Positions 33,954 to 50,499 of a stretch of DNA of 64,000 nt are shown one piece after another; the first letter of the stretch is position 1; each line of letters begins with the position of its first letter. Source of the DNA: Elusimicrobiota bacterium (lineage in GTDB: Bacteria; Elusimicrobiota; Elusimicrobia; UBA1565; UBA9628); the NCBI GenBank assembly GCA_027452025.1, contig DAIDHI010000033.1, forward strand, positions 4,737 through 68,736, read 5' to 3'. The notes below the pieces were generated by a model. The model did no database searches, was not told where the DNA came from, and saw only the letters and a list, made by a program, of their open reading frames with translations. A program made the position numbers and the translations under genes.

Positions 33954-34026
33954 GGCGCCGTAGCTCAGGGGTTAGAGCGAGCGTTTCATAAGCGTTAGGT
34001 CGGTGGTTCAAATCCACCCGGCGCCA
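33954..34026 (+). tRNA. tRNA with CAT anticodon (elongator Met, or Ile2 if lysidinylated)
   Basis: Hand-folded. Acceptor GGCGCCG/CGGCGCC (G1-C72 paired, so not an initiator), anticodon loop TTCATAA, and T-arm GGTGG-TTCAAAT-CCACC. Confidence 0.8.
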
Positions 34027-34036
34027 CCGATTTGCG

Positions 34037-34064
34037 GGCCTGCGTCATCGCGGGCCTTTTTATT
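34037..34064 (+). terminator. Rho-independent terminator after tRNA-Met
   Basis: An 8-bp stem pairs ggcctgcg with cgcgggcc (one G-U pair) around the loop tcat, followed by TTTTTATT. Confidence 0.6.
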
Positions 34065-34084: not shown

Positions 34085-34114
34085 TTGACTTGCCGCTTTG
34101 TTTATAGATATAGT
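34085..34114 (+). promoter_or_regulatory. Sigma70-like promoter TTGACT-18 nt-TATAGT for the histone-fold gene
   Basis: Seen in the AT-rich spacer about 50 nt upstream of ATG 34164. Confidence 0.5.
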
Positions 34115-34163: not shown

Positions 34164-34346
34164 ATGGCCGAGACTCTCGTCGTCGTCAGCAAAGTCAAGA
34201 AGATCGTCAAGGACGCCGGTTTCCGCACGGGGGGCGATTATATCGACAGCCTCTCCAACAAGATCAGCAGCCTCATCCAGGCTTCCATCGAGAAGGTCAA
34301 GGCCGACGGCAAGAAGAAGACGCTCGGCGCCGAGGATCTGGCTTAA
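34164..34346 (+). CDS. Histone-fold DNA-binding protein (bacterial singlet histone-like, 60 aa)
   Basis: The sequence is MAETLVVVSKVKKIVKDAGFRTGGDYIDSLSNKISSLIQASIEKVKADGKKKTLGAEDLA. It aligns by eye with archaeal HMfB ([54 protein letters not shown]). AGGAGAG SD. The track ORF starts at an upstream ATG (34098) that lies inside the promoter region. Confidence 0.7.
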   Translation: MAETLVVVSKVKKIVKDAGFRTGGDYIDSLSNKISSLIQASIEKVKADGKKKTLGAEDLA

Positions 34347-34366: not shown

Positions 34367-35371
34367 ATGCAAACGTTCAGGGATTTCATGGAGGCAGCCC
34401 TCTACGACCCTGAGCGCGGCTATTATAGCCGCCGCACGCCGACGGAGGATTTCTACACCGCTCCGGAGCTGCATCCCGCCTATGCCGGAGCGCTCGCGCG
34501 CGTCGTGGCCCAGCGCTTCGAGCTGATGAAGGCGGCCGGCGTCCCGGGGCCTTATTCTGTCGTGGAAATGGGCTGCGGCCAGGGGCGCCTCGGACGGGCG
34601 CTGCTCTGCGAGTTCAAGCAGAGGCACCCGGCCTGGGCGACGCAGACCCGCTACGTCCTCATCGAGCGTTCCCGCACGGCGCTGCTCGACGCCATCATGG
34701 CGGCCTCGCAGGTCCACGGGCAGGTGTTGGGCTACAGCCGCCTCGAGGAGCTCCTTCCCTGCTCCGGGATCTTCCTGTCCAACGAGCTGGTGGACGCCTT
34801 CCCGGTGCACCTGCTCGAGAAGCGCTCCGGGCGAGTCTTCGAGGTCTATGTCGAGGATTCCGGACGCACCGTGCTCTCCGATCTGTCCACGCCGGAGCTG
34901 GTCCCCCATGCTCAAGCGGTCGAGGCCAGCCTCGCCGAGGGCGAGCGCCATGCCGTCAATCTTGAAGCCCGCCGCTGGCTGCGCCTGGTCTCCCAGAAGC
35001 TCGAGGCGGGCTACGTCGTGACGATTGACTACGGCAAGCGCTTCGGCGCCAGCCCCAATCCTCCGCGGACGTTCTACCGGCACACCACCGATGAACTGGT
35101 GACCGACGGCAAGGGCCGCAAGGACATCACGGCCTCCGTCGACTTCGACGCCCTCATCGACGAGGGCGGCCGCTTGGGTCTCGGCTTGGAGCTTTACGGC
35201 TCGCTTTCTCGCTTCCTGCTCGAGGCCGGAATCGCGGATTGGATGCCGTCGGGAGACTCCGTGGCCGACCTCAAGGCTCGCACGAAAATCAAGACGCTCA
35301 TCCATCCGGAAGGGATGGGCGAGGTCTTCAAGGTTTTGATCCAGAAGAGATCCCCGGAGCTGCCCCAATGA
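34367..35371 (+). CDS. MidA/NDUFAF7-family SAM-dependent methyltransferase (DUF185)
   Basis: FMEAALYDPERGYYS N-terminus, SAM motif VVEMGCGQGRLG, NELVDAFPVH and TIDYG motifs typical of the MidA family. The stop overlaps the nuoA ATG (ATGA). Confidence 0.75.
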   Translation: MQTFRDFMEAALYDPERGYYSRRTPTEDFYTAPELHPAYAGALARVVAQRFELMKAAGVPGPYSVVEMGCGQGRLGRALLCEFKQRHPAWATQTRYVLIERSRTALLDAIMAASQVHGQVLGYSRLEELLPCSGIFLSNELVDAFPVHLLEKRSGRVFEVYVEDSGRTVLSDLSTPELVPHAQAVEASLAEGERHAVNLEARRWLRLVSQKLEAGYVVTIDYGKRFGASPNPPRTFYRHTTDELVTDGKGRKDITASVDFDALIDEGGRLGLGLELYGSLSRFLLEAGIADWMPSGDSVADLKARTKIKTLIHPEGMGEVFKVLIQKRSPELPQ

Positions 35372-35724
35372 TGAGCGCGTTCGCCGTCGTCTATGCCCTC
35401 ACTCTCGTCGCCGTTCTTTTCGCGGCCGTGACGCTGATCGCGGCCAAGCTGCTTCGGCCGCGCGTGGAATACGCCCGGAAACTCTCCACCTACGAGTGCG
35501 GCATCCCGGCCGTCGGCACCACCGAGGTCAAGCTCAACATCCGCTTCTACGTCTTCGCCTTGCTGTTCGTGCTCTTCGACGTCGAGACGCTCTACGTCTA
35601 TCCTTGGGCCGTCACGGCCAAGAGCCTGGGCACGCCGGCGATCGCGGAGATGGGAGTTTTCCTCGCGATTCTCTTCATCGGGCTGGCTTACGCCTGGGCC
35701 AAGGGCGCGCTGCAGTGGGAATAG
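35368..35724 (+). CDS. nuoA: NADH-quinone oxidoreductase subunit A
   Basis: Three TM helices with YECG and FDVE motifs. Confidence 0.9.
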   Translation: MMSAFAVVYALTLVAVLFAAVTLIAAKLLRPRVEYARKLSTYECGIPAVGTTEVKLNIRFYVFALLFVLFDVETLYVYPWAVTAKSLGTPAIAEMGVFLAILFIGLAYAWAKGALQWE

Positions 35725-35747: not shown

Positions 35748-36356
35748 ATGGGCATCGTCATCGAGAAGCTGCCGGGAATCACCAAGGGCCTGCCAGGCGG
35801 GGAACTCCTCCTGACGACGGCCGACTACTTCGTCGATCTGGGCCGCCGGGCGTCGCTTTGGCCGATGACGTTCGGCCTTGCCTGCTGCGCCATCGAAATG
35901 ATGGGCTCCTATGCCTCGCGCTTCGATTTCGACCGCATGGGGGTCATTCCCCGCGCCAGCCCGAGACAGGCCGACGTGATGATCGTGGCGGGCACCGTCT
36001 GCAAGAAGATGGCCGAGCCGATCCTGGAGATCTATCACCAGATGCCCGAGCCGCGCTTCGTCATCTCGATGGGCTCTTGCGCCAACTGCGGCGGGCCCTA
36101 TTACGACTCATACTCGGTGCTCAAGGGCGTGGACAGGATCGTGCCTGTCGACGTATACATCGCGGGCTGCCCTCCCCGTCCCGAGGCCCTGCAATACGCG
36201 GTGGTCAAGCTCCAGGAGAAGATCGCCCGCATGAAGCTCTCCCAAGCGGGAGGAGCCTCGCTCCAGCAGGAGCGAGGCAGCCGCGACGTCGTCGGCGGCG
36301 CGGCGCCCCAGCCGCTGCCCGGTTCGGAGACCGGGCCGCGCATCGAGGTCGGCTGA
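35748..36356 (+). CDS. nuoB: NADH-quinone oxidoreductase subunit B (with a C-terminal extension of about 40 aa)
   Basis: N2-cluster cysteines [20 protein letters not shown] and AGCPPRPE. Confidence 0.95.
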
Positions 36357-36357
36357 G

Positions 36358-36927
36358 ATGACCCAAGACGAGCTTTACTCCAAACTGGCGGCGGAGCTGC
36401 CGCACCTTGAGAAGGCCCAGACGCAGGTCAAGGACTATCTCACGATGCGCCTTCCCTCGGCCGATCGCCTTCTCGAGACCGTCCGCGCCCTCAAGGAACG
36501 GCTGGGCTTCGATTACCTGGAGATGGTGAGCGCCACCGACTGGCTCGGGCCCGTCAAGCCGGAAGGCTACATCCGCAACCCGAACCCGATCGTCTTCATG
36601 GCCGAGGGGGCCACGCCGCAAAGCATCCCCACGGCGACGCCGAACTTCCCGTATCGTCCGATGATCGAGCTGGTCTGGATGCTCGCCAACATCCCGGAGA
36701 AGATCAGGCTCGTCCTCAAGCTGGAAGTGCCGCGCGAAGACGCCGCGGTCCCGAGCCTTTGCGGCCTCTTCAAGGCGGCCGACTGGCAAGAGCGCGAGAT
36801 CTACGATTTGATGGGCGTGGCCTTCACGGGCCATCCCAATCTGACGAAGATCCTCACGCCGGAGTTCCTCCAGGGCCATCCGTTGCGCAAGGATTACGTC
36901 CACGTCAAGGACCGCTTCGATGAATAA
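36358..36927 (+). CDS. nuoC: NADH-quinone oxidoreductase subunit C
   Basis: [23 protein letters not shown] and PLRKDY motifs. Confidence 0.9.
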
Positions 36928-38062
36928 AGGAGCCATGGCCCCAGACCAGGAGCAGGACACGCCCTTGAAGTCGGACTCGATGTTCATCAATCTTGGCCCG
37001 CAGCACCCGTCGACCCACGGCGTGCTTCGCGTCGGCCTGACCATCGATGGAGAAATGATCACCAAGGCCGTGCCCGACGTCGGCTATCTCCACCGAGGCA
37101 CGTCCAAGCTCGCCGAGGTCCGCGGCTACCATCACTGCGTCGTCCTCACGGACCGCTGGGATTACGTCTCCGCGATGCCCAACAACCTGGTCTTCTGCCT
37201 GGCCGCGGAACGCCTGATGGGGCTAAATGTGCCGCCGCGCGGCGACGTCCTGCGCGTGCTCATGTGCGAGCTCAACCGCATCGCCAGCCACCTGCTGTTC
37301 TTCGGGACCTACGGCATCGACATCGGCGCCTTCACGCCGTTCCTCTACGCTTTCCGCGAACGAGAGATGATCCTCGACCTCTTCGAGATGGTCAGCGGCG
37401 CGCGCCTGACCTACAACTACATCCGCCTCGGCGGCGTGATGGTGGATGTGACCGACGAGTGGGTGGCCAAGTGCCGCGAGTTCATCGAGTACTTCAAGCC
37501 GCGACTCGACGAGTACGACACGCTCCTCACTTATAATCCGATCTTCATGGCGCGCACCGAGAAGGTCGGCCTCATCCCGCCGCAGACGGCGGTCAACTGG
37601 GGCCTCTCGGGCCCCAACCTGCGCGGGTCGGGCGTCAATTACGACGTGCGCAAGGCCGACCCGTATTGCGGCTACGAGCAATACGACTTCGAGATTCCGC
37701 TGGGCAAGACCGGCTCTTGCTGGGATCGCTACTTCTGTCGCGTCTCGGAGATGCGCCAGTCGGTGCGCATCGTCTTGCAGGCTCTCGACAAGCTCGCGCC
37801 GGGACCGGTCATGGCCCCCGGAGTGGCGAAGGTGCCCAAGCCCCAGCCGGGCGAGGCGTACGCTCACGTCGAGGGCGCGCGAGGCGACCTGGGCATCTTC
37901 CTCGTCTCCGACGGCCAGGCAAGCCCCTATCGCATGCACGTGAAGGCGCCGTCCTTCATGAATCTGGCCATCCTCCAGGAGCTGCTGGTCGGCAACAAGG
38001 TCTCCGACGTGATCGCCATCCTGGGGTCGACCGACATCGTCTTGGGCGAGGTGGACCGTTAA
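36920..38062 (+). CDS. nuoD: NADH-quinone oxidoreductase subunit D
   Basis: [23 protein letters not shown] and the C-terminal DIVLGEVDR motifs. An alternative start is ATG 36935. Confidence 0.95.
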
Positions 38063-39442
38063 ATGAGCGAACCGGCGAAGGAAAAGGAAGCCGTACCGGC
38101 GGCGACGCCAGCGAATGTCGTGCCGGCCGGGGCGGCGGCAGCGCCGGCGGCCGCCGCGGGCACCGTCGCCCCGAAGCCGGCGCCGAAAGCCGCCGCCAAG
38201 CCCCTGCCCACGCCCGTCTTCAACGAGCGCCACGGCAAGCTCATTTTGAATTCCCGCTACTGGCCCACCGAACTGTGGAAGAGCCCTTGGTCGCTGCCCA
38301 GCTACCGCAAAGGAGCGCTGGTGCTCTTCGGCCTCATCGCCGGCATCCTCCTCACCGGCGCCGCCGTGGGGGAGCTCTCGCGCTGGGCGGATAAGCTCTA
38401 CGCCTTGATCGCCGCCTTCGTCGCGGCCCGGCATTGGCCCGCCGTGACGACCGACGCGGTCTGGGACCTCATCAAGATCCTGATCGTGCTGCACGTCGTG
38501 CTTATCAACGGCCTCTGGGCCATCTGGTGGGAGCGCAAGATCTCCGCGCACATCCAGTCCCGCGTCGGACCGACTTACGCGGGAGGCTGGCACGGCTGGG
38601 CTCAGACTCTCCTCGACGGCGTCAAGCTGCTGCTCAAAGAGGACATCACGCCGACGGCCGCCGACAAGTGGGTGCACGCCCTGGCCCCGGCGATCGTCGT
38701 GGCGCCCGTGATCATTGCCTTCGCCCCGGTGACCTTCGGCAAGCAGCTGGCGGCGGCGAACCTCGACATGGGCGTGCTCTACATCTTCGCCTTCGCGGGG
38801 ATCTCCGTCATCGGCGTCATCATGGCCGGCTGGGCGTCCGGCAACAAGTACTCGCTGCTCGGCGGCCTGCGCGCTTCCGCGCAGCTCGTCAGCTACGAGC
38901 TGCCTCGCGGCTTTTCGATCGTCCCGGTCCTGATGTTCGCCGGCTCCCTGAACCTCTCCACCATCGCCGACGCGCAAGCGGGCTACTGGCACGGCTTGCC
39001 CCGCTGGTTCATCTTCTATCCGGTGATCGGGCCGCTCGCCTTCGTGATCTTTCTCATCGCCTCGGTCGCGGAGACCAACCGCACCCCCTTCGACATCCCG
39101 GAGGCCGAGTCCGAGCTCGTGAGCGGCTTTCATACGGAATATTCGGGTATGAAGTGGTCGATCTTCTTCCTGGCCGAATACGGCTACGTCCTGCTCGCCT
39201 CGTTTTTGCTGGCGACGTTTTTCCTCGGCGGCGGCGCCTCTCCCTTCGCCTTCGACCACGTGATCCCGAGCTGGATTTGGATGCTGGGCAAGGCGATGCT
39301 GATGATGTTCACGTTCCTCTGGATTCGCTGGACGTTCCCGCGCTTGCGCGCCGACCAGCTGATGGATTTCAACTGGAAGTTCCTGCTCCCCTGGAGCTTC
39401 GCCAATATCGCCTTCGCGGGCCTGTTCCTCCTCTTCCGATGA
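38063..39442 (+). CDS. nuoH: NADH-quinone oxidoreductase subunit H with an N-terminal extension of about 120 aa
   Basis: The core begins around WWERKISAHIQSRVGP, with ETNRTPFDIPEAESELVSGFHTEYSG further on. The ATG directly abuts the nuoD stop (TAAATG). Confidence 0.85.
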   Translation: MSEPAKEKEAVPAATPANVVPAGAAAAPAAAAGTVAPKPAPKAAAKPLPTPVFNERHGKLILNSRYWPTELWKSPWSLPSYRKGALVLFGLIAGILLTGAAVGELSRWADKLYALIAAFVAARHWPAVTTDAVWDLIKILIVLHVVLINGLWAIWWERKISAHIQSRVGPTYAGGWHGWAQTLLDGVKLLLKEDITPTAADKWVHALAPAIVVAPVIIAFAPVTFGKQLAAANLDMGVLYIFAFAGISVIGVIMAGWASGNKYSLLGGLRASAQLVSYELPRGFSIVPVLMFAGSLNLSTIADAQAGYWHGLPRWFIFYPVIGPLAFVIFLIASVAETNRTPFDIPEAESELVSGFHTEYSGMKWSIFFLAEYGYVLLASFLLATFFLGGGASPFAFDHVIPSWIWMLGKAMLMMFTFLWIRWTFPRLRADQLMDFNWKFLLPWSFANIAFAGLFLLFR

Positions 39443-39966
39443 TCGAATACTTCTCGAAGGTCTTTCGCGGCGCCTGGGCCACCGTGGCCGGGATGATGGT
39501 GACGCTCAAATACATGGTCAAGCCCTCCGTCACGGTGCATTATCCGACGGAGAAGCTCGTGCCTTTCGAGCGCTTCCGGGGGGCGCTGCTTTTCGACCCG
39601 GGCACCTGCATCTCCTGCAATCTGTGCGTGAAGGCTTGCCCCTCGACCTGCATCACGCTCGAGAACGCCACCATCCCCGACCCCAAGAATCCCGCGATCA
39701 AGAAAAAGGTCGCCAAGGTGGACTGGTACACCATCGATTTCGGCAAATGCAACTTTTGCCGGCTTTGCGAGGAATCCTGCCCGACCAAGCCGAAGTCGGT
39801 CTGGCATTCGCTCGACTACGAGGTCGTGTTCTTCTCCCGCGACGAGATGGTCCGGTGCTGGAAGGCGGGCACGAAGTTCGTCGGCCAGTATTGGGACCGC
39901 AAAGAGAAGGCCTTCAAGGATCCCGAGGGACAGATTCAGATCCAAGACGTGCAGGCGAGGCGCTAG
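39439..39966 (+). CDS. nuoI: NADH-quinone oxidoreductase subunit I
   Basis: Two 4Fe-4S motifs, CISCNLCVKACP and CNFCRLCEESCP. ATGA overlap with nuoH. Confidence 0.9.
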   Translation: MIEYFSKVFRGAWATVAGMMVTLKYMVKPSVTVHYPTEKLVPFERFRGALLFDPGTCISCNLCVKACPSTCITLENATIPDPKNPAIKKKVAKVDWYTIDFGKCNFCRLCEESCPTKPKSVWHSLDYEVVFFSRDEMVRCWKAGTKFVGQYWDRKEKAFKDPEGQIQIQDVQARR

Positions 39967-40461
39967 ATGCTCGAACAGATCGTCTTCTATTCGCTGGCCG
40001 CGCTGATCACCGCGTCGGCCCTTATGGTCGTGACGGCGAGGAACACAGTGCACTCCGCCCTGTTCTTGGGCCTGTGCTTGGCCGGCGTGGGGGGGATTTT
40101 CGCGCTGCTCGGAGCCGATTTTCTTTTCGCAGGCCAGATCATGGTCTATGTCGGCGGCATCGCCGTCCTGATCATGTTCGTGGTCATGCTCCTCGGCCGG
40201 GCCTCCGACCTGCACCTGCGACAGATGAACAAGCAGTGGGCGGCGGCGCTGCTGGTCTGCGCCGCCTCGCTGGCCGGGTTCTGGAAGATCGTGCGGATGG
40301 CGGGCGGGGCCCTCGCGACGGCGCCGGTCAAGCCGACGACCGGCCCGCTGGGTCTCATCATGATGGGCGACTACGCCCTGCCTTTCGAGCTCGTCTCCCT
40401 GGTGCTGACCGGGGCGCTGCTCGGGGCGATCTTTTTCTCCCGCAGCGAGAAAAGCCAATGA
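39967..40461 (+). CDS. nuoJ: NADH-quinone oxidoreductase subunit J
   Basis: Typical NuoJ TM pattern (FLFAGQIMVYVGGIAVLIMFVVML) and position in the operon. Confidence 0.85.
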   Translation: MLEQIVFYSLAALITASALMVVTARNTVHSALFLGLCLAGVGGIFALLGADFLFAGQIMVYVGGIAVLIMFVVMLLGRASDLHLRQMNKQWAAALLVCAASLAGFWKIVRMAGGALATAPVKPTTGPLGLIMMGDYALPFELVSLVLTGALLGAIFFSRSEKSQ

Positions 40462-40763
40462 ACCTGGGAAGCTACGTCGCTCTGTCGGCCGCGTTGTTTT
40501 TGATCGGGGTCTTCGGCGCCCTGACCCGGCGCAACATCATCGGCATTCTCATGGCCATCGAGCTCATGTTCAACGCCGCCAACATCAACCTGGCCGCTTT
40601 CAACCGATATCTGCATCCGGGCGGCATCATCGGCCAGACCCTGGCGCTCTTCATCATCAGCATCGCCGCCGCCGAGGTCGTGGTCGGCCTGTCGCTGGTC
40701 CTGGCGATCTACCGCAACACCGACACCGTCTACGTCGAGGACTACAACCTGCTCAAGGGATAA
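40458..40763 (+). CDS. nuoK: NADH-quinone oxidoreductase subunit K
   Basis: 101 aa with three TM helices, ILMAIELMFNAANINL and IAAAEVVVGLSLVLAIYR. ATGA overlap with nuoJ. Confidence 0.9.
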   Translation: MNLGSYVALSAALFLIGVFGALTRRNIIGILMAIELMFNAANINLAAFNRYLHPGGIIGQTLALFIISIAAAEVVVGLSLVLAIYRNTDTVYVEDYNLLKG

Positions 40764-40767
40764 GCCC

Positions 40768-42732
40768 ATGCTTGAACACGTCTACCTCATCCCGCTGATC
40801 CCGCTATTCGCCTCCCTGGTCATCCTTCTGGGCTTCAAGGAGGACCCGCACTCTCCGGCGCCCTACCTCGGCCTCGCGGCGATGGGCTGGTGCCTGCTGC
40901 AGGCCGTCTCGATCTTCTGGGGCGTGGCCGGGGGCCGCATCGTTCTGCCTTACGAAGCCAGCATCAATTGGTTTCCCCTGGCGACCGAGGTGGCCGGCAA
41001 GGCGTTTTCCTACCAGATGCCGATCGGCGTCCTTATCGACGGCCCGGCGGCCGTGATGCTCGTCGTCGTGACGCTGGTGAGCTTCCTCGTCCAGCTCTAT
41101 TCGCTCGGCTACATGCACGGCGATTCGCGCTTCAGGCGCTACTACGCCTTCCTCTCTTTCTTCACGGCTTCGATGCTGGGCCTGGTCGTTTCCAACAATC
41201 TCCTGGTCACGTTCATGTGCTGGGAGCTGGTGGGCGTCTCCTCTTACCTGCTCATCGGCTTCTGGTTCGAGAAGCCCGGGCCCGCGTACGCTTCCAAGAA
41301 GGCGTTCATGACGACGAAGCTCGGCGACTGCGGCCTCTACCTGGCGCTCCTCTTCATCTTCACGAAGGTCGGCAGCTTCCAGATCGATCAGGTCCGCGAG
41401 TTCGCGACCCGCGGATATTTCGGGATGGGCGCGGCGACGGCGATCGGCTTCGGCCTGCTGTGCGGCTGCGCCGGCAAGTCGGCGCAATGGCCCCTCTTCA
41501 TCTGGCTGCCCGATGCCATGGAGGGCCCGACGCCGGTGTCGGCCCTCATCCACGCGGCCACCATGGTGGCCGCCGGCATCTACCTCATCGCCAAGACGTA
41601 CTTCATCTTCCTGGCCGCCCCGATCGCGATGGAGGCCGTGGCCTGGATCGGCCTCATCACGGCTTTTCTCGCGGCGTCGATGGCCTTGGTCTCCTACGAC
41701 ATCAAGCGCGTCCTCGCCTTCTCCACCGTTTCCCAGCTCGGCTTCATGATGTGCGCGCTGGGGGCGGGGGGCTACACCGCCGGCCTGTTCCATCTGACCA
41801 CGCACGCTTTCTTCAAGGGCCTCCTCTTCTTGGGCGCGGGCTCGGTGATCCATGCCGTGCACACCAACGATATGCGCTCGATGGGCGGCCTGTCGAAAAA
41901 GATGCCCATCACGTTCCTGACGATGCTCGCGGCGACTCTGGCCATCTCCGGCGTTTGGCCCTTTGCGGGCTATTTCTCCAAGGACATGATCCTTGAAAGC
42001 GTCTATCATCACAGCCCCGTCATGTTCTACTTGCTGACCGCGGCCGCCTTGATGACGGCCTTCTACATGTTCCGCTTGATCTCCATGACCTTCCTGGGCC
42101 CCGACCGCGACCACGAGAAGCACCACCACGCGCACGAGTCTCCGCTGGTGATGACCGTGCCCCTCATGGTCCTCGGCCTCCTGTCCGTCGTCGCCGGCGC
42201 CGCACTGGCCCACGACGGCTTCGTGGAGCGCCTGCTGTCGTTCCCGATGCCGCAGACGCCGGGGCCGGAGTTTCCGAGGGCTCTGGGCCTGGGCGTCAGC
42301 GCCTTGGTCTTGTGTTCGCTGGCCCTGTCCTGGTTCCTCTACGGGCGCGGCGACTTCTCGATCGCCGAGGCCGTTAAGAAGCGCTTTTCCGCCGTCTTCA
42401 ACGTCCTCGAGGGCCGTTATTATTTCGACCAGTTGTTCCTGGGTCTGGTCGCCGTCGCCGACGGCGCGGCCAAGCTCGCCTTCTGGATCGACGCGCGCGT
42501 CATCGACCAGACGTTCGTCGACGGCTGGGGGTTGCTCATGCGGGTGTTCTCGGAGCTCAGCGCCTTGTTCGACGGCCTCTTCATCGACCGCACGGTGGAC
42601 GGCTTCGGGGGCTTGAGCTCGGACCTGGGCACGGGCCTGCGCGCCTTGGTCGCCGATGGGCAGGTGCAGGAGTATTTGCTGTACGCGGCGATCGCCGTGA
42701 GCTTGGCCACGATCTTCATCTTGTCGCGTTGA
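40768..42732 (+). CDS. nuoL: NADH-quinone oxidoreductase subunit L
   Basis: Antiporter-like core (FMCWELVGVSSYLLIGFW, WLPDAMEGPTPVSALIHAATMV) plus the long C-terminal lateral-helix region. Confidence 0.95.
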   Translation: MLEHVYLIPLIPLFASLVILLGFKEDPHSPAPYLGLAAMGWCLLQAVSIFWGVAGGRIVLPYEASINWFPLATEVAGKAFSYQMPIGVLIDGPAAVMLVVVTLVSFLVQLYSLGYMHGDSRFRRYYAFLSFFTASMLGLVVSNNLLVTFMCWELVGVSSYLLIGFWFEKPGPAYASKKAFMTTKLGDCGLYLALLFIFTKVGSFQIDQVREFATRGYFGMGAATAIGFGLLCGCAGKSAQWPLFIWLPDAMEGPTPVSALIHAATMVAAGIYLIAKTYFIFLAAPIAMEAVAWIGLITAFLAASMALVSYDIKRVLAFSTVSQLGFMMCALGAGGYTAGLFHLTTHAFFKGLLFLGAGSVIHAVHTNDMRSMGGLSKKMPITFLTMLAATLAISGVWPFAGYFSKDMILESVYHHSPVMFYLLTAAALMTAFYMFRLISMTFLGPDRDHEKHHHAHESPLVMTVPLMVLGLLSVVAGAALAHDGFVERLLSFPMPQTPGPEFPRALGLGVSALVLCSLALSWFLYGRGDFSIAEAVKKRFSAVFNVLEGRYYFDQLFLGLVAVADGAAKLAFWIDARVIDQTFVDGWGLLMRVFSELSALFDGLFIDRTVDGFGGLSSDLGTGLRALVADGQVQEYLLYAAIAVSLATIFILSR

Positions 42733-42781: not shown

Positions 42782-44242
42782 ATGAACATGCTGAGCCTGG
42801 TCACTTTCATTCCCTTGGCGGGGGCGCTGCTCGTCCTGGCGCTGCCCAAGGAGCGCGTCAAGGCGATCCAAGCGACGGCGCTGGCGAGCGCCGGGGCCTC
42901 CCTGGCCCTGTCGATCGCGCTGATCCCGCTGTTCAACCGGGGCTCGGCCGACATGCAGTTCGTCGAGCGGCTGTCCTGGATCCCCTCGATGGATATCCAC
43001 TATGTCCTCGGCGTCGACGGCCTCTCCTTCCCGCTGCTGCTGCTGACGACCTTCATCAGCTTCATCGCCCTGATCGGGTCGCTGGGCATCAAGGAGCGCG
43101 TCAAGGAGTATTTCTTCTGGTTCCTGGTCCTGGAAGTGGGCATGCTCGGCGTCTTCGAGGCCCTCGACCTCGTGCTTTTCTACGTGTTCTGGGAGCTCTG
43201 CCTCGTCCCGATGTATTTCCTGATCGGCATCTGGGGCGGCCCGCGCAAGGAGTTCGCCGCGATCAAGTTCTTCCTGTATACCCTGGCCGGCTCCGTTTTC
43301 ATGCTGCTGGCCATCCTGGCCGTCTACTTCAACACGGCCCCGCACACCTTCGACATGATCGCCTTGATGAAGGCCCACTCCGCTTGGAGCCTGAAGTTCC
43401 AGATCCTGGTATTCCTGGGCTTCTACCTGGCCTTCGCTATCAAGATTCCGGCCTTCCCGTTCCATACCTGGCTGCCGTTGGCGCACGTCGAGGCGCCGAC
43501 CGCCGTTTCCGTCATCCTGGCCGCCGTGCTGCTCAAGATGGGCCTCTACGGCCTGCTGCGCGTCTGCTACGAGATGCTCCCGCTGGGCTTTCACTGGTTC
43601 CTGCCCTTCCTGATCGCCATCGCCGTAATCAACATCGTCTACGGCGCCCTGTGCGCCATGGCGCAGACGGACATGAAGAAGATGGTCGCCTATTCCTCGG
43701 TCAACCACATGGGCTACTGCCTGCTGGGCGTGGCCGGCGTCTCGGCGATCGGATTTTCGGGCGCCGTGCTCCAGATGATCAACCACGGCATCATCACCGG
43801 CTCCCTGTTCCTTCTCGTCGGCGTGATCTACGACCGCGCCCATACGCGCGACATCTCGGCCTTCGGCGGCCTCGCCGCCCGGGTGCCGATCTATGCCGGC
43901 CTGATGTTTTTGGCCTGCTTCGCCTCCCTGGGCCTGCCCGGGCTGGCGGGCTTCGTCAGCGAGTTCATGTGCTTCCTCGGGGGCTTCGCGCAGTGGAAGA
44001 TCTATACGGCGATCTCGGTGCTGGGCGTGCTCGCCACGGCGGCCTTTTTCCTGCGCATGATGGAGAAGGTCTTCCTCGGGCCGCTCAACAACAAGTGGGC
44101 GGGACTTTCCGACATGAGCGCTCGCGAACTGTGCTCGATCGTGCCGCTGACCGTGCTGACCATCGCTTTCGGCGTCTGGCCGAAGCTCGCGTTGGCCTTC
44201 ATCAATACCACGGCGGTGCAGATGGCCGGCCTCTTCAAATAA
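42782..44242 (+). CDS. nuoM: NADH-quinone oxidoreductase subunit M
   Basis: FYVFWELCLVPMYFLIGIWG and HTWLPLAHVEAPTAVSVILA motifs. Confidence 0.95.
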   Translation: MNMLSLVTFIPLAGALLVLALPKERVKAIQATALASAGASLALSIALIPLFNRGSADMQFVERLSWIPSMDIHYVLGVDGLSFPLLLLTTFISFIALIGSLGIKERVKEYFFWFLVLEVGMLGVFEALDLVLFYVFWELCLVPMYFLIGIWGGPRKEFAAIKFFLYTLAGSVFMLLAILAVYFNTAPHTFDMIALMKAHSAWSLKFQILVFLGFYLAFAIKIPAFPFHTWLPLAHVEAPTAVSVILAAVLLKMGLYGLLRVCYEMLPLGFHWFLPFLIAIAVINIVYGALCAMAQTDMKKMVAYSSVNHMGYCLLGVAGVSAIGFSGAVLQMINHGIITGSLFLLVGVIYDRAHTRDISAFGGLAARVPIYAGLMFLACFASLGLPGLAGFVSEFMCFLGGFAQWKIYTAISVLGVLATAAFFLRMMEKVFLGPLNNKWAGLSDMSARELCSIVPLTVLTIAFGVWPKLALAFINTTAVQMAGLFK

Positions 44243-44245
44243 GCG

Positions 44246-45670
44246 ATGAGCAACCTCCACCTCCTCTCCCCGGAGCTGGCCCTGGGCGGCATGGCCCTCG
44301 GCCTGATGGTCGCCGACCTTTTTGTGGCAGCCAAGCACGGCCGGCTCCTCTACCATTTGGGGTGGCTGGTCTCGATTCTGGCGCTGGTGATGGTCGGCTA
44401 CACCATCTCGAACTCCGCCGCGGGACAGGGCGTGGGCAGCCTGTGGGCCGTGGACCCGATGAGCCAGTTCTTCAAGATGCTCATCCTGCTGACGACCGTC
44501 CTCTGCCTGCTGATGGGGCTGGAGTACAAGGATTTGCCGCCGGCTCACGCGGGGACGTTCGTCTGCCTGCTCCTTTTTTCGGCGGTCGGGATGATGCTGC
44601 TGGTCTCTTCCGTCGACTTGCTTCTGACCTTCGTGGCCCTCGAGCTCATCTCGCTGACCTCCTTCATCCTGGCCGGTTTCGAGCGGCGCAACCACAAGTC
44701 CAACGAGGGCTCGGTCAAGTATTTCCTGTTCGGAGCGTTCTCCTCGGCCATCATGGCCTACGGCATCTCGCTTTTCTACGGCGCCACGGGCACCACGAGG
44801 CTGGTCGGCGTCGGCCACGACGGCGGGCCGATGTTCCTGCTCGGCTTGCTGATGATCCTGCTGGGCTTCTGCTTCAAGGCCTCGATCGCGCCCATGCACT
44901 TCTGGGTGCCTGACGCTTACGAAGGGGCACCGACTCCCGTGACGGCCTTCCTGTCCTTGGCGCCCAAGATCGCCACCCTGGGCGCGATGGTGCGCCTCTT
45001 CACGGTTCTGCTGCCCGCTTCGGCTTTCAACCTGACCACGCTCTTCGTGGTCCTGGCCGCGGCGACGATGACCGTGGGCAACTTCACGGCGTTTTTCCAG
45101 AACAACGTCAAGCGCCTCCTCGCCTACTCCTCGATCGCGCAGGCGGGCTACATCCTCATCGGGATCGCTTCCGGCAATACGATCGGCACCGAGGGCGTGC
45201 TGCTCTATTCCTTCGTCTACGTCGCCATGAACATCGGGGCCTTCGCCGTCGCCCAGTCCGTCGCCTCGCGCAGCGACGGGGCCGGCGCCTATGACCTGGA
45301 GGCTTTCAATGGCCTGGCGCGGCGCTCTTTCGGCCTGGCCCTGGCGATGGCGTTCTTCCTGCTCTCGCTTTCCGGTATCCCGCCCTTGGCCGGGTTCATC
45401 GGCAAGTTCTATATCTTCTCGGCGGCCGTCCAGTCGGGCCATATGGGCCTGGCCGTCATCGCCGTGATCAATAGCGTGGTTTCCGTCTACTACTACATGC
45501 GGGTGGTTTACCACATGTTCTTCAAGCCGGCTGCCGACGAGACGCCTCTAGCCGTCGGGCCTTTCCTTTATGGCGGCTTGGCCATCGCCATGGCCGGCAT
45601 CCTGGCCTTCGGCGTCTACCCCGAGCCGCTGGTCGCCAGCGTCCAAGCCTCGGCTCAATACCTGCCCTGA
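44246..45670 (+). CDS. nuoN: NADH-quinone oxidoreductase subunit N
   Basis: FVALELISLTSFILAGF and HFWVPDAYEGAPTPVTAFL motifs. Confidence 0.95.
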   Translation: MSNLHLLSPELALGGMALGLMVADLFVAAKHGRLLYHLGWLVSILALVMVGYTISNSAAGQGVGSLWAVDPMSQFFKMLILLTTVLCLLMGLEYKDLPPAHAGTFVCLLLFSAVGMMLLVSSVDLLLTFVALELISLTSFILAGFERRNHKSNEGSVKYFLFGAFSSAIMAYGISLFYGATGTTRLVGVGHDGGPMFLLGLLMILLGFCFKASIAPMHFWVPDAYEGAPTPVTAFLSLAPKIATLGAMVRLFTVLLPASAFNLTTLFVVLAAATMTVGNFTAFFQNNVKRLLAYSSIAQAGYILIGIASGNTIGTEGVLLYSFVYVAMNIGAFAVAQSVASRSDGAGAYDLEAFNGLARRSFGLALAMAFFLLSLSGIPPLAGFIGKFYIFSAAVQSGHMGLAVIAVINSVVSVYYYMRVVYHMFFKPAADETPLAVGPFLYGGLAIAMAGILAFGVYPEPLVASVQASAQYLP

Positions 45671-45700: not shown

Positions 45701-46213
45701 ATGTTGGCTCCTTTGGCCGTTTGTTTGCTCGCCCTGACGCCCGCCCGCGCCTCCCTCGACGGCTCCAACTCGCCTACGCTCACGCTCTTGAACCGCACGG
45801 CCGCCCAGGACACGGCCGCGGCGGGCGCGACGCGCCCCGAGGACTCCAAGGAGCAGGCCTCTCAGGCCTTCACCGGAGGCAGCCCCGCCGCTTCGGCGCC
45901 TCTGCCTACCGGCACGGCCGCCAACGGGCAATCCTACATCATGGTCGGCCAAAGCCCCATCCAGGGCATCAGCATCTATACCCCGAAGCTCGATCCGAGC
46001 GGCCACGGGACCACCGGCCAGCCTACGGCCCGGGATTTCATCAGCCGCAAGAAGGTCTTCGGCGCGGGGGCCCTTGGCGCGGCCGCCGTGGTCGGAGGCT
46101 TGATGGCGGGCGGGGGCTTGGGAGCGGCCCTGCTCGTGCTCGGCGGAGCGCTGCTCGGCGTCGCGGCGCTTTTTGGCTGGCTCAACCACAAGCTCAAGAA
46201 GGGCAAGCGCTGA
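45701..46213 (+). CDS. Hypothetical secreted protein with a C-terminal glycine-zipper membrane segment
   Basis: Signal peptide MLAPLAVCLLALTPARA. C-terminal GAGALGAAAVVGGLMAGGGLGAALLVLGGALLGVAALFGW followed by KLKKGKR. Confidence 0.5.
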   Translation: MLAPLAVCLLALTPARASLDGSNSPTLTLLNRTAAQDTAAAGATRPEDSKEQASQAFTGGSPAASAPLPTGTAANGQSYIMVGQSPIQGISIYTPKLDPSGHGTTGQPTARDFISRKKVFGAGALGAAAVVGGLMAGGGLGAALLVLGGALLGVAALFGWLNHKLKKGKR

Positions 46214-46228
46214 GGACGCGCCGCCTGG

Positions 46229-47116
46229 ATGAGCGGGCCGCGCGACCTCATCTTAGCCGCTGCCGCGACCGGCTCCTTCCTGCTTTGCCTCTCCGTGGCC
46301 AGCCGCTGCAGGCCTTCCCCGGCGCCTCGCTGGGCCGCTGAAACGGCCGCCCAGGCCGCGACCGGCGGCGACGGCGGCGTCACGCCCGCTTATCAGCGCC
46401 TCTGGAGCACGCCCCAAGACTACCTCGCCGACTACGGCTTCGAGAACTTCAACCGGGACCGCCTCTCGGTCCATTATCAGGTCCCGCGCTGGGCCCTGGG
46501 CCCATATGAAGCGCAGTTCGGCTACCGGCCGGCCGAAGCCGCCGCCATCTCCGACTCCGCGCGAGCCGCGGCCTATTTCGAATCTCGCGGTTTCCGGGTG
46601 CTCAGGCCCGGAGTGGTGGCCGTCGACATGCCGCAGCTGGTACGAAAGAACGCTGCGCTCGTGCGGCCCGTGGCCGCCGCCCTGGACCGCACCGCGCGCC
46701 TGCGCTCCTACGGCTCCGACGACGTCATCGGCGCGGCCGCCTCCTTGGTGCAGACCGCCATCCGCTATCAGGTGCCGGCCCTTGAGGTCGACGGCCGCGA
46801 CACGGCGGGCGTGCTGCAGCCGGTATCCGTGCTCGTGCGCGGCTTCGGTGACTGCGACACCAAGACCGGGCTGCTGGCGTCGCTTCTGGCCAACTGGCCG
46901 CGCATGCGCATGCTGGGAGTCGCCTTGCCCGGGCACTATCTCATGGGCGTGCTGCGCCTGCCCGGCCAGGGCGACGCCTATGTGGAGTACGACGGGCTCG
47001 ATTACGACCTCGTCGAGGCCGCCGGCCCGGCCTGGCTTCCGATCGGCATGGTCTCCGAGCACACGATGGCGCTGCTCGAGGCAGCCGACGGCTACCGCAT
47101 CGATCCGTTCTTCTAG
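46229..47116 (+). CDS. Hypothetical exported protein with a transglutaminase/papain-like Cys-His-Asp arrangement
   Basis: N-terminal hydrophobic segment. Candidate triad RGFGDCDTKTGLLASLL, then PGHYLMGV, then YDGLDYDLVEA. Confidence 0.5.
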   Translation: MSGPRDLILAAAATGSFLLCLSVASRCRPSPAPRWAAETAAQAATGGDGGVTPAYQRLWSTPQDYLADYGFENFNRDRLSVHYQVPRWALGPYEAQFGYRPAEAAAISDSARAAAYFESRGFRVLRPGVVAVDMPQLVRKNAALVRPVAAALDRTARLRSYGSDDVIGAAASLVQTAIRYQVPALEVDGRDTAGVLQPVSVLVRGFGDCDTKTGLLASLLANWPRMRMLGVALPGHYLMGVLRLPGQGDAYVEYDGLDYDLVEAAGPAWLPIGMVSEHTMALLEAADGYRIDPFF

Positions 47117-47125
47117 GAGAAAGAC

Positions 47126-47671
47126 ATGTTTTTCACCCACATCCTCGTCGGCTTGTTCGACTTCACGCTCGCCGTGGTCATGTCCGCGCTGATCATCTTC
47201 CTCACTTACCGGGTCTTCATCGCCGCCAATCCGGACTTCGACATGGAGGAGGAGATCCGCAAGGGCAACGTCGCCGTCGGCACGCTCGTGGCCGCGATCC
47301 TCTTCGCCGCGTCCATGATCCTCCAGAAGGGGATGGATTCCGTCGTCGGCATGGTGCGCCTGCGCCTGATCGCGCCGGCGGAGACGGGCTTCACGCTTTG
47401 GCAGCTGCTGTGGCTTTGCCTTGGGCAGCTGGCCATGTCGATGGTCCTGGCGCTTCTGACCGTCTCCATCACCCTGCGCCTCTTCGGGCGCCTGGCCCGG
47501 GTGCGCGGCTGGCGGCCGGGAGCGGAGCTGCAAAGAGGCAATCTCGCCGCCGGAATCCTGCTTTCCGCAGCCGTCGTGGTCGCGTCCCTCTACGTCGGCG
47601 AGGGCGTCAGCGCCCTCTCCAAGGCCCTGACGCCGCAGCCCGTGATCGGGCAAGTCCAGATCATGCGCTGA
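47126..47671 (+). CDS. DUF350-like membrane protein (two repeats)
   Basis: Two copies of a TM/TM unit each preceded by a small polar loop (EEEIRKGNVAVG and AELQRGNLAAG), the pattern I associate with YjfL/DUF350. Confidence 0.55.
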   Translation: MFFTHILVGLFDFTLAVVMSALIIFLTYRVFIAANPDFDMEEEIRKGNVAVGTLVAAILFAASMILQKGMDSVVGMVRLRLIAPAETGFTLWQLLWLCLGQLAMSMVLALLTVSITLRLFGRLARVRGWRPGAELQRGNLAAGILLSAAVVVASLYVGEGVSALSKALTPQPVIGQVQIMR

Positions 47672-47709: not shown

Positions 47710-47738
47710 TTGACTCCCTGATGACGATTAGTTAGAAT
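47710..47738 (+). promoter_or_regulatory. Near-consensus sigma70 promoter TTGACT-17 nt-TAGAAT for the pyrimidine cluster
   Basis: Seen in the AT-rich spacer. A 6-bp inverted repeat, cgtcat (47695-47700) and atgacg (47721-47726), brackets the -35 element. Confidence 0.55.
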
Positions 47739-47756: not shown

Positions 47757-49163
47757 ATGCCCGCATCCGATTCCCGCCGCGATTTCGAAAAGCGCTTCCA
47801 GGAGCTTCATCCCGCCTTGCGCCCGGAGGAAGCGGCCGTCGAGGCCAATCGCTGCCTGTACTGCTATGACGCCCCCTGCGTGCGGGCCTGCCCCACGCAC
47901 ATCGACGTCCCGCGCTTCATCAAGCAGATCGCGTCGGGAAACCTGAGCGGCTCGGCCAAGACGATCCTCGAGGCCAACGCCTTCGGCCACTCCTGCGCCC
48001 GGGCCTGTCCGGTGGAGGTCCTGTGCGAAGGCGCCTGCGTCTACCACGATTGGCAGGAACGTCCCATCTCCATCGCCGCCCTGCAGCGCCGGGCCACCGA
48101 TTTTCTACAGGCGCAAGGGCGCTCGCCGTTCGCGCCCGGCCCCGACGCCGGCTTCAAGGTCGCCGTCGTAGGCGCGGGGCCCGCGGGCCTTTCCTGCGCG
48201 GCCTATCTGCGCCGCCTCGGCTACGGCGTGACCGTCTTCGATCGCGAAAAGACGCCGGGCGGCCTCAACACCTTCGGGATCGCGCAATACAAGATGTCGA
48301 AGGAAGTCTCGCTCGACGAGATAGAACGAATCCTCAAGCTCGGCATCGAGCTCAAGCTGGGCGTCGAGATCGGCAAGGACCTCCCGGCCGCGCGGCTGCT
48401 CTCAGATTTCGACGCGATCTTCCTGGGCGTCGGCCTGGGGGCCACCAAGGCCCTCGGCGTCAAGGGAGAGGCCCTGGACGGCGTGTGGGACGCCCTCTCC
48501 TTCATCCGCCACGTCAAGGACCGCGATCTCAAGCCCCTGGGCCAAAGCGAGTGCACCGTCGTCATCGGCGCCGGAAACACCGCCATCGACGCCGTCACGC
48601 AGTCCAAGCGGGCCGGCGCGCGCCGCGTGGTCATGGCCTACCGACGCGGCGAGGCGGACATGGGCGCTTACGGCTTCGAATACGCCCTGGCCAAATCCGA
48701 CGGCGCGCAATTTCTTTGGAACGCCGCGCCCGTCGAAGTCCTCGGGCGCCGGCGCGTCGAAGGCGTCGCCTTCGAAAAGACCGCGGTGCGCGGCGGCAAG
48801 GTCGTCTCCCTGCCCCGCAGCCGCTTCACCGTCGCCTGCGACCGCGTGATCAAGGCCATCGGGCAAAGCAAGCTCGCGGGCCTGGCCGGCGAGCTCGGGC
48901 TGCGGCTGGCGGCCGACGGGCGCATCGCCGTCGAGGCCCGGACCCTGCGCACCTCCCAGCCGCGGATCTTCGCGGGCGGCGACTCCGTCAACGGGGGTAA
49001 AGAGGTGGTCAACGCCGCCGCCGACGGCAAGCGGGCCGCCTACGGCATCCACCTGGCCCTGCGGCCGGGGGCCCCGGTCCCCGCCGGCAACGAGTATTGG
49101 GTCTCCACCATCGACGGCCGCCGCGTGGCGCCGATCCCGCAAAAAGAGCTGATCCATGGCTGA
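47757..49163 (+). CDS. preT: NAD-dependent dihydropyrimidine dehydrogenase subunit PreT (GltD-like)
   Basis: 4Fe-4S region CLYCYDAPCVRACP ... CARACPVEVLCEGAC and dinucleotide motif VAVVGAGPAGLSCA. Confidence 0.85.
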   Translation: MPASDSRRDFEKRFQELHPALRPEEAAVEANRCLYCYDAPCVRACPTHIDVPRFIKQIASGNLSGSAKTILEANAFGHSCARACPVEVLCEGACVYHDWQERPISIAALQRRATDFLQAQGRSPFAPGPDAGFKVAVVGAGPAGLSCAAYLRRLGYGVTVFDREKTPGGLNTFGIAQYKMSKEVSLDEIERILKLGIELKLGVEIGKDLPAARLLSDFDAIFLGVGLGATKALGVKGEALDGVWDALSFIRHVKDRDLKPLGQSECTVVIGAGNTAIDAVTQSKRAGARRVVMAYRRGEADMGAYGFEYALAKSDGAQFLWNAAPVEVLGRRRVEGVAFEKTAVRGGKVVSLPRSRFTVACDRVIKAIGQSKLAGLAGELGLRLAADGRIAVEARTLRTSQPRIFAGGDSVNGGKEVVNAAADGKRAAYGIHLALRPGAPVPAGNEYWVSTIDGRRVAPIPQKELIHG

Positions 49164-50499
49164 TCTTTCCACCGACTGCGCCGGCATAAAGTCTCCGAAC
49201 CCGTTTTGGCTGGCCTCGGCGCCGCCGACCAACTCCGGCGAGCAGGTCATGCGCGCCTTCGAGTACGGCTGGGGGGGGGCGGTCTGGAAGACGCTGGGCC
49301 AGGACCCGCCCGTCATCAACGTCACCTCGCGCTACGGCAGCCTGGATATCGGGGGCCAGAAGGCCGCGGGCTTCAACAACATCGAGCTGATCACGGACCG
49401 TCCGCTCGAGGACAATCTGCGCGAGATCTACCAGGTCAAGAAGCGCTTCCCGAAAAACGCCGTCGTCGCCTCGCTCATGGTCCCCTGCGAGCGGCAAGCC
49501 TGGCACGACATCGTGGCTAAGGTCATCGACGCGGGCAGCGACGGCATCGAGCTGAACTTCGGCTGCCCGCACGGCATGAGCGAGCGCGGGATGGGGTCGG
49601 CGGTCGGGCAGGTGCCCGAATACGTCCAGATGGTCACCGAGTTCGTCAAGGAGAAGTCGACGATCCCGGTCCTGGTCAAGCTCACCCCGAACGTGGCCGA
49701 CGTCCGCTACCCCGCCCGCGCCGCCAAGGCCGGCGGCGCCGACGGCGTCTCGCTGATCAACACCATCAACTCCATCGTCGGCATCGATCTCGAGACGCTC
49801 AAGCCGAAGTTCTCGGTGGGCGGCAAGCTCGCCCACGGCGGCTATTGCGGTCCGGCGGTCAAGCCGATCGCCCTCAATATGGTGAGCCAGATCGCCAACG
49901 ATCCGCAGACCCAGGGCCTGCCCATCTCCGGCATCGGCGGCATCTCGACTTGGGCCGACGCCGTCGAATTCATGCTTCTGGGCTCCTCCTCCGTGCAGCT
50001 GTGCACGGCCGTCATGCACTACGGCTTTCGCATCATCGAGGAGCTCACGGCAGGGCTTGAGGACTGGATGGAGGCGCGGGGCTTTGCGAAGATCTCGGAG
50101 TTCGTGGGGCGTTCGGCGCCGAGCATCGTCGAATGGAAGCAGCTCAACCTCCACCACAAGACGGTGGCCCGCATCGACCGCGACCGGTGCATCGGCTGCG
50201 ATCTGTGCTACGTGGCCTGCAACGACACGGCGCACCAGTGCATCGTCCTGCCCAAAGCGAAGGGCAAGGCCGCCCGCAAGCCCATCGTCATCGAGGAGGA
50301 CTGCGTCGGCTGCAATCTCTGCTCGATCGTCTGTCCGGTGGACGGCTGCATTACGATGACGGAGATAGCGACCGGCCTTGAGCCGCTGACGTGGGAGCAG
50401 CATGTCAAGGGCGGCCGCTACAGCGACGTCTACCGCCGGATGCACGGGCAGCCGTCGACGGCCAAGCGGCCCGGGAAGAGCCTTTCGAATGCCGCCTGA
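49156..50499 (+). CDS. preA: Dihydropyrimidine dehydrogenase subunit PreA (DHOD-like TIM barrel plus 2x[4Fe-4S])
   Basis: GIELNFGCPHGM, and the C-terminal CIGCDLCYVACND and CVGCNLCSIVCP motifs. Overlaps preT by 8 nt. Confidence 0.85.
   Translation: MADLSTDCAGIKSPNPFWLASAPPTNSGEQVMRAFEYGWGGAVWKTLGQDPPVINVTSRYGSLDIGGQKAAGFNNIELITDRPLEDNLREIYQVKKRFPKNAVVASLMVPCERQAWHDIVAKVIDAGSDGIELNFGCPHGMSERGMGSAVGQVPEYVQMVTEFVKEKSTIPVLVKLTPNVADVRYPARAAKAGGADGVSLINTINSIVGIDLETLKPKFSVGGKLAHGGYCGPAVKPIALNMVSQIANDPQTQGLPISGIGGISTWADAVEFMLLGSSSVQLCTAVMHYGFRIIEELTAGLEDWMEARGFAKISEFVGRSAPSIVEWKQLNLHHKTVARIDRDRCIGCDLCYVACNDTAHQCIVLPKAKGKAARKPIVIEEDCVGCNLCSIVCPVDGCITMTEIATGLEPLTWEQHVKGGRYSDVYRRMHGQPSTAKRPGKSLSNAA

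Follow-up and report, generated by a model that had tools for sequence, protein, structure and literature searches.

The methyltransferase of 334 aa that is encoded immediately upstream of nuoA in an Elusimicrobiota complex I operon would, with a probability of roughly 0.6 by our estimate, methylate Arg59 of the NuoD subunit, next to the iron-sulfur cluster N2, during the assembly of the complex, as suggested by sequence comparison and by analogy with mitochondria. The reading is built on the family of the protein, recognized by both sequence and fold, the intact motifs of the enzyme, the overlap of its gene with nuoA, the conserved linkage of the two genes among relatives and the target arginine found in NuoD.

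In the proposed scheme, midA and the nuo genes would be made from one transcript that runs from the promoter through hbb and midA into nuoABCDHIJKLMN, and the translation of midA would run into the start of nuoA. MidA is then predicted to add one or, more probably, two methyl groups to Arg59, a residue in the HRGT loop of newly synthesized NuoD that would adjoin the cluster N2 held by NuoB. The modification would precede or accompany the docking of NuoD onto NuoB and NuoH. Methylation of Arg59 may aid the assembly, tune N2, or both, and MidA would fill the role that NDUFAF7 has in mitochondria and that the Paracoccus homologue presumably has as well. Four elements of this scheme are each inferred from the evidence below, namely the shared transcript, the substrate, the modified residue and the number of methyl groups added.

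The window, which denotes the whole analysed stretch of 64,000 nucleotides, is part of C33, a contig in a metagenome-assembled genome (MAG) of 3.2 Mb from the Elusimicrobiota, whose nearest relatives are groundwater Elusimicrobia. The features of the locus are given below, with the strand where one is assigned.

33954-34028, tRNA-Met, upstream of the promoter candidate
34036-34057, terminator-like hairpin between tRNA-Met and the promoter candidate
34085..34114, + strand, sigma-70-like promoter candidate (TTGACT-18-TATAGT; a consensus match at 10/12 positions only)
34164..34346, + strand, hbb, 60-aa HBb-type histone-like gene, the first gene of the string
34367..35371, + strand, midA, 334-aa MidA/NDUFAF7-family (PF02636) SAM-dependent methyltransferase
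34559..34594, + strand, SAM-binding motif I of the midA product, VVEMGCGQGRLG, residues 65-76
35368..35371, + strand, ATGA, the nuoA start overlapping the midA stop
35368..35724, + strand, nuoA (PF00507, 118 bits)
35748..36356, + strand, nuoB (Pfam match; cluster N2 cysteines present)
36358..36927, + strand, nuoC (Pfam match)
36920..38062, + strand, nuoD, 380 aa, the proposed substrate (PF00346, 333 bits)
37085..37108, + strand, NuoD loop YLHRGTSK, residues 56-63, with the Arg59 codon at 37094-37096
38063..39442, + strand, nuoH, with an N-terminal extension of ~130 aa (Pfam match begins at residue 137)
39439..39966, + strand, nuoI, with two 4Fe-4S motifs and an ATGA overlap with nuoH (Pfam match)
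39967..40461, + strand, nuoJ (Pfam match)
40458..40763, + strand, nuoK, 101 aa, assigned by position and sequence only
40768..42732, + strand, nuoL (Pfam match)
42782..44242, + strand, nuoM (Pfam match)
44246..45670, + strand, nuoN (Pfam match)

The midA frame extends from the ATG at 34367 to the TGA at 35369-35371, and the ATG of nuoA at 35368-35370 overlaps this stop codon, just as the original prediction had seen in the sequence; a second in-frame ATG of nuoA is located at 35371, with GGAG 10 nt upstream. A longer midA frame starting from an in-frame TTG at 34085 was rejected, since all relatives start at MxTFRDFM, and it is further disfavoured by the promoter-like site that the added stretch holds and by its overlap with the histone gene. 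The hbb gene ends 20 nt before midA, while the intergenic gaps of the nuo operon vary from -8 to +49 nt. Because nuoH (from 38063) adjoins nuoD (to 38062) without a gap, no nuoE, nuoF or nuoG is accommodated in the window's nuoABCDHIJKLMN operon, and the contiguous gene string corresponds to an 11-subunit, NuoEFG-less complex I, which agrees with the subunit count of the original prediction. The product of nuoD is matched by the NuoD models of NCBIfam, with NF004739 and TIGR01962 scoring above cut-off. Judged from spacing only, hbb, midA and nuoA to nuoN likely constitute one transcription unit; the sequencing runs that matched the locus comprised two DNA metagenome runs, covering small parts only, and no RNA runs.

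Downstream of nuoN, three ORFs separated by gaps of 30, 15 and 9 nt occupy 45701-47671, among which only the third has a Pfam match (DUF350), and they may belong to the nuo transcript. They are followed at 47757-50499 by two genes that look like those for the small and large dihydropyrimidine dehydrogenase subunits, with the domains Fer4_20 plus Pyr_redox_2 and DHO_dh plus 4Fe-4S, respectively, and a separate promoter-like site is found ahead of the pair at 47710-47738. The N-terminal extension of NuoH (38063-38470) is common to the relatives with MidA-linked operons, in which the tblastn alignments start at query residue 53-62. With f1 denoting the window's family and f1-f12 denoting GTDB families, the corresponding alignments start at residue 80-154 in f6, f7, f9, f10, f12 and loci from outside the class; an alignment start at residue 53 is likewise seen in two f5 operons that lack MidA.

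PF02636 (Methyltransf_28), formerly termed DUF185/MidA and corresponding to COG1565, is the sole Pfam family matched by the midA product, with a score of 126 bits (E 2.2e-36; profile positions 2-236 of 249) against a gathering cut-off of 23.3 bits, and this was the very profile search that the original prediction had proposed. It is the only PF02636 gene of the genome (n=1). No model was matched in the NCBIfam search of the protein, and the source annotations of its relatives read 'SAM-dependent MidA family methyltransferase'.

An alignment of 58 relatives revealed 20 invariant columns and 39 more that are conserved at ≥90% overall. In motif I, E67 and G69 are invariant, and G71 and G73 are nearly invariant. 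The family motifs SNELVDAFPVH, IDYG, DITASVDF and HPEGMGEVFKV are present in the midA product and also align to 4f3n, and nearly all positions of the corresponding consensus strings (ExGxGxG, NELxDAxP, DYG, DxTxxVDF and HPxGMGExFKV) are invariant or conserved at ≥90% in the 58 relatives. Since all of the motifs are kept in these relatives, the pattern is that expected of an active enzyme, and catalysis is predicted from the conserved SAM and family motifs.

The AlphaFold2 model of the midA product, which was built on the 58 relatives, reached a mean pLDDT of 96.4 and matches the solved fold of the family, consisting of a methyltransferase core with seven beta-strands and family-specific inserts. 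The first six PDB hits of the model all belong to COG1565/MidA (4g67, 4f3n, 1zkd, 5zu0/5ztz) with TMq values of 0.79-0.82, while the other methyltransferases that come next in the structure search reach only ~0.4. The sequence search against solved proteins gave E values of 5e-23 for 4f3n/4g67, 7e-10 for 1zkd and 1.6e-3 for Dictyostelium MidA (5ztz). Both sequence and modelled structure place the midA product within the MidA/NDUFAF7 family, of which it is a compact and diverged representative. Its identity as a MidA-family methyltransferase linked to the nuo operon can be taken as nearly certain, and the MidA (DUF185) hallmarks, including the SAM motif, on which the original prediction had relied are borne out by profile and fold alike.

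The linkage of midA and nuoA is conserved across a large clade of the Elusimicrobiota. To survey it, PF02636 and PF00507 (NuoA) profile searches were run over 401 Elusimicrobiota genomes and the coordinates of the matches were compared. In f1, each of the 33 MidA-bearing genomes has midA immediately before nuoA in the same orientation. The same adjacency was found in eight of the nine MidA-bearing genomes of f2 (seven with a domain-to-domain gap ≤338 nt), as well as in all MidA-bearing genomes of f3 (2/2) and f8 (4/4). Apart from three f2 genomes having wider gaps of 338-520 nt, the domain-to-domain gaps in these families amount to 216-316 nt. Within the window's order, 43 of the 48 genomes with the EFG-less operon have MidA directly upstream of nuoA, and together with the four f8 genomes they dispel the concern that the adjacency might be unique to this genome. 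The fetched loci confirm the order hbb-midA-nuoABCDH, and hbb stands upstream of MidA or nuoA in 37/46 loci blasted across the class, whether MidA is present or not. An [AG]TGA stop/start overlap occurs in 11/21 linked loci including the window (10/20 scanned, plus the window), and its occurrences extend across f1, f2, f3 and f8.

Four genomes (G194, G277, G317 and G092) cleanly lack midA and have hbb directly before nuoA, and in a further one (G353) nuoA is situated at a contig edge and there is no PF02636 match. In f11 (G218, L021:2895-4390), two ORFs of 403 and 145 aa with no Pfam match come between midA and nuoA, which makes this the only genome of the linked clade where the two genes are separated.

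The linked MidAs group together in a single clade of the maximum-likelihood tree (100/97), and the unlinked MidAs of f6, f7, f9, f10 and f12, which score higher against PF02636, branch apart from it. Because the linked MidAs are monophyletic, the linkage arose once, and the many adjacent cases, which go back to one ancestral arrangement, are not independent events. The linked MidAs have diverged down to 33% identity while staying nuo-linked. None of the four nearest homologues outside the phylum (Acidobacteriota loci) is located next to nuo genes.

A second nuo cluster with the unusual gene order nuoLMN-ABCD-(E)F(G)-H is harbored by the same genome outside the window (G000:C79:24155-35950, where G000 stands for the window's genome). 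This cluster contains the genome's only NuoF (C79:32306-32800), the motif of its NuoD is YLHRAFEK, and no MidA was found near it. In 12/12 f1 genomes possessing only nuoA of this EFG-containing type, no PF02636 gene was detected. Across the order, MidA is present in 43/48 EFG-less genomes versus 0/12 EFG-containing-only genomes (Fisher p 4e-9, with genomes that are not phylogenetically independent); since adjacent genes are expected to be lost together, the pattern shows association rather than mechanism. In this genome, the methyltransferase gene accompanies the EFG-less operon rather than the second, 14-subunit enzyme, the NuoD of which carries HRAF, and the gene reportedly keeps to the EFG-less operon in Ca. 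Actinomarina as well.

The proposed target is defined by work on the bovine 49-kDa subunit, in which the modified peptide KCDPHIGLLHRGTEK (residues 75-89) contains a symmetrically dimethylated Arg-85 in the context LLHRGTEK (Carroll et al. 2013, PMC3750175). The same arginine is dimethylated in human, Pichia pastoris and Paracoccus denitrificans (Nqo4), whereas it is kept but unmodified in E. coli, and Thermus has Thr at that position (PMC3750175). NDUFAF7 is responsible for the methylation of this arginine of NDUFS2 in human cells (Rhein et al. 2013, PMC3829151), and the alpha-proteobacterial homologues do likewise according to bioinformatic and structural evidence (review, PMC9006661). In the window's NuoD, Arg59 is the equivalent of bovine Arg-85 in a gapless alignment with 9/15 identical positions, and the phmmer register against the 430-residue mature chains (query residue 19 to chain residue 45) is consistent with this assignment. 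The original prediction had pointed out the LHRG(T/S)xK loop and had placed the methylated arginine within it; the loop is indeed kept as YLHRGTSK at residues 56-63, and this placement holds up against the published bovine peptide (PMC3750175).

Possession of the target arginine was considered as a marker that would separate methylated from unmethylated NuoDs and was discarded, as the residue is nearly universal, including in MidA-less genomes (f5 and E. coli, the latter having no PF02636 gene in the control panel); its presence alone accordingly proves little. HRG[T/S], as in mitochondria, is found in 22/22 linked NuoDs, while the position two residues after the arginine is Val or Ile in three of the four operons that lost MidA and Phe, Ile or Met in the f5 genomes without any MidA. 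These sequences, a small and phylogenetically structured sample, give hints that RG(T/S) may be part of the recognition site. The window's NuoD departs from the conserved HRGXE motif (PMC8042128) at the glutamate, which is replaced by Ser (HRGTS); four related NuoDs from this family group have Ser, Gln or Cys at that position, and all the other Elusimicrobiota NuoDs examined have Glu. The substitution counts against a methylated Arg59, as do the remote sequence similarity to the experimentally proven enzymes (E 1.6e-3 for Dictyostelium MidA) and the Acidobacteriota homologues that are not linked to nuo.

It is also conceivable, albeit unlikely, that the enzyme serves this complex I through another target, such as a different residue of NuoD, NuoB, the N-terminal extension of NuoH or a wholly different protein, or that it works mainly as a binding chaperone. 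The linkage ties the gene to the operon and not to a particular residue, the bacterial PF02636 proteins outside the alpha-proteobacteria are without a tested substrate, and the nearest homologues outside the phylum are not nuo-linked, so that the family may have several substrates; moreover, the unusual NuoH extension is peculiar to this operon type. Nevertheless, the sole substrate ever shown for the family is this arginine (PMC3750175, PMC3829151, PMC9006661), and the HRGT context is the mitochondrial one in all linked operons and drifts after the loss of MidA.

The slot before complex I is filled by two unrelated methyltransferases, namely MidA in f1, f2, f3 and f8 and MenG in f6, f7, f9, f10 and f12, and it is empty in G194, G277, G317 and G092. 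The slot genes of the latter five sister families (L035:2158-2967, L038:2181-2957, L040:2198-2932, L043:2256-2966 and L044:4353-5072) are genuine MenG/UbiE genes, which score 91-145 bits against PF01209 and 129-189 bits against TIGR01934. The MenG-slot genomes contain MqnA/D of the futalosine pathway and also keep a separate canonical MidA. A menaquinone-pathway search was carried out on G000 and 13 relatives. The linked-MidA genomes showed no full-length MenG/UbiE, the one match (59 bits in G398) falling well short of the 158-bit cut-off, and MenB did not exceed its cut-off in any of them; no MqnA/D was found in the window's order (G000 and relatives searched), and three f8 genomes gave weak partial PF02621 matches only. 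No Men or Mqn pathway was found in these genomes of the window's order, although they carry two complex I enzymes.

The shared slot (hbb-X-nuoA), together with the lack of full-length MenG/UbiE in the linked-MidA genomes, might be taken to mean that the protein methylates a small molecule (a quinone) and took the place of MenG before nuoA. This is rated as quite improbable, because its fold and motifs are those of MidA and not of UbiE (it matches PF02636 only, and neither PF01209 nor TIGR01934), because the rest of the menaquinone pathway also seems to be missing, which would leave no demethylmenaquinone to methylate, and because the MenG-slot genomes keep a separate MidA, by which the two functions appear distinct. 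An adjacency devoid of functional meaning, in which the gene landed upstream of nuoA in one ancestor and was carried along, would fit the single origin of the arrangement and a permissive slot that holds MidA, MenG or nothing, but it is scarcely credible in view of the pairing and stop/start overlap kept down to 33% identity, the independent NDUFAF7-nuo linkage reported in Actinomarina and the known biochemistry of the family, which points to this very complex.

The midA product resembles human NDUFAF7 and Dictyostelium discoideum MidA (5ztz, 5zu0, 5zzw) in the Pfam family, the fold (TMq ~0.8), the SAM motif, the partner subunit with the HRGT context of the arginine and the association with complex I biogenesis (a predicted one for the midA product). 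In contrast to these proteins, to which it is ~21% identical, it has 334 aa instead of ~400-440 and no targeting sequence, its gene is located inside the complex I operon, its partner is an 11-subunit enzyme without the NADH module and its activity is predicted. The structure of MidA was reportedly described by Shahul Hameed et al. in Cell Rep in 2018.

The closest solved relatives are the COG1565 protein of Burkholderia thailandensis (4f3n, 4g67) and RPA4359 of Rhodopseudomonas palustris (1zkd), with E 5e-23 for 4f3n/4g67, 29-30% identity, TMq values of 0.80-0.82 and all family motifs aligned; the window's protein lacks ~75 N-terminal residues present in 4f3n. To our knowledge, 4f3n/4g67 and 1zkd are structural-genomics proteins with no known substrate and no known link to a nuo operon.

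Nqo4 of Paracoccus denitrificans carries symmetric dimethylarginine at the equivalent residue of a bacterial complex I (PMC3750175). Paracoccus is an alpha-proteobacterium with a 14-subunit enzyme, where the modification is demonstrated and the enzyme inferred, whereas the window presents the reverse case, with an evident gene and an inferred modification. In Ca. Actinomarina, nuoABCDHIJKLMN without nuoEFG forms one string with a PF02636 gene (Bulzu et al., bioRxiv 10.1101/2021.02.01.429150); like the window's genome, the Actinomarina genomes encode a 14-subunit complex I in addition. The NDUFAF7 gene of Actinomarina, which belongs to another phylum, is placed downstream of nuoN, unlike midA of the window, which is upstream, follows a histone-like gene and represents an arrangement that often overlaps nuoA.

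A literature search for an operon link between midA and nuo returned one passing mention only, that of Bulzu et al. (bioRxiv 10.1101/2021.02.01.429150), and in the paper on groundwater Elusimicrobia the EFG-less complex I is covered but the methyltransferase is not mentioned. The maturation of complex I by MidA/NDUFAF7 through an arginine of NDUFS2/NuoD is established in eukaryotes, and the modification is established in one bacterium (PMC3750175, PMC3829151, PMC9006661, PMC8042128). The new elements are the clade within the Elusimicrobia, a midA position that is upstream of nuoA and often overlaps it, and a slot that alternates between midA and menG; the novelty is limited by the Paracoccus Nqo4 modification and the Actinomarina NDUFAF7 behind an 11-subunit nuo operon, both of which were already known. 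The 'unusually direct link' envisaged by the original prediction stands insofar as the adjacency is conserved, but it is less unusual than supposed, given that Paracoccus Nqo4 is dimethylated and that an NDUFAF7 gene is listed for Actinomarina.

In mitochondria, arginine dimethylation by NDUFAF7 is needed for the assembly of complex I, and its mechanistic role is debated (PMC8042128). The mitochondrial system is hard to study, with enzyme and substrate embedded in a 45-subunit organellar complex, while neighbouring genes for the enzyme and its substrate in a bacterial operon would offer a minimal pair for testing, for which E. coli could act as host, having no MidA gene in the control search and an unmodified arginine in its own NuoCD. 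With this operon, genomic evidence for the arginine modification also reaches the 11-subunit complex I and a phylum that is only distantly related to the alpha-proteobacteria. Because an entire branch of the phylum retains the pairing, the same maturation step as in mitochondria, by analogy, probably occurs in this Elusimicrobia branch. A broader and decidedly speculative extension, which we regard as possible but doubtful, is that methylation of the N2-adjacent arginine by MidA-type enzymes is an old step preferentially associated with 11-subunit complex I rather than an alpha-proteobacterial or mitochondrial speciality; under this extension, the Thr or Ser two residues after the arginine may be a recognition determinant that decays after the enzyme is lost.

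Long paralogues of 598-675 aa that are unlinked to nuo (L060:2234-4261, L061:2197-4059 and L062:2290-4086) constitute a third PF02636 clade, and one match (G285:C1:454840-455886) is embedded inside an open frame of 3339 aa.
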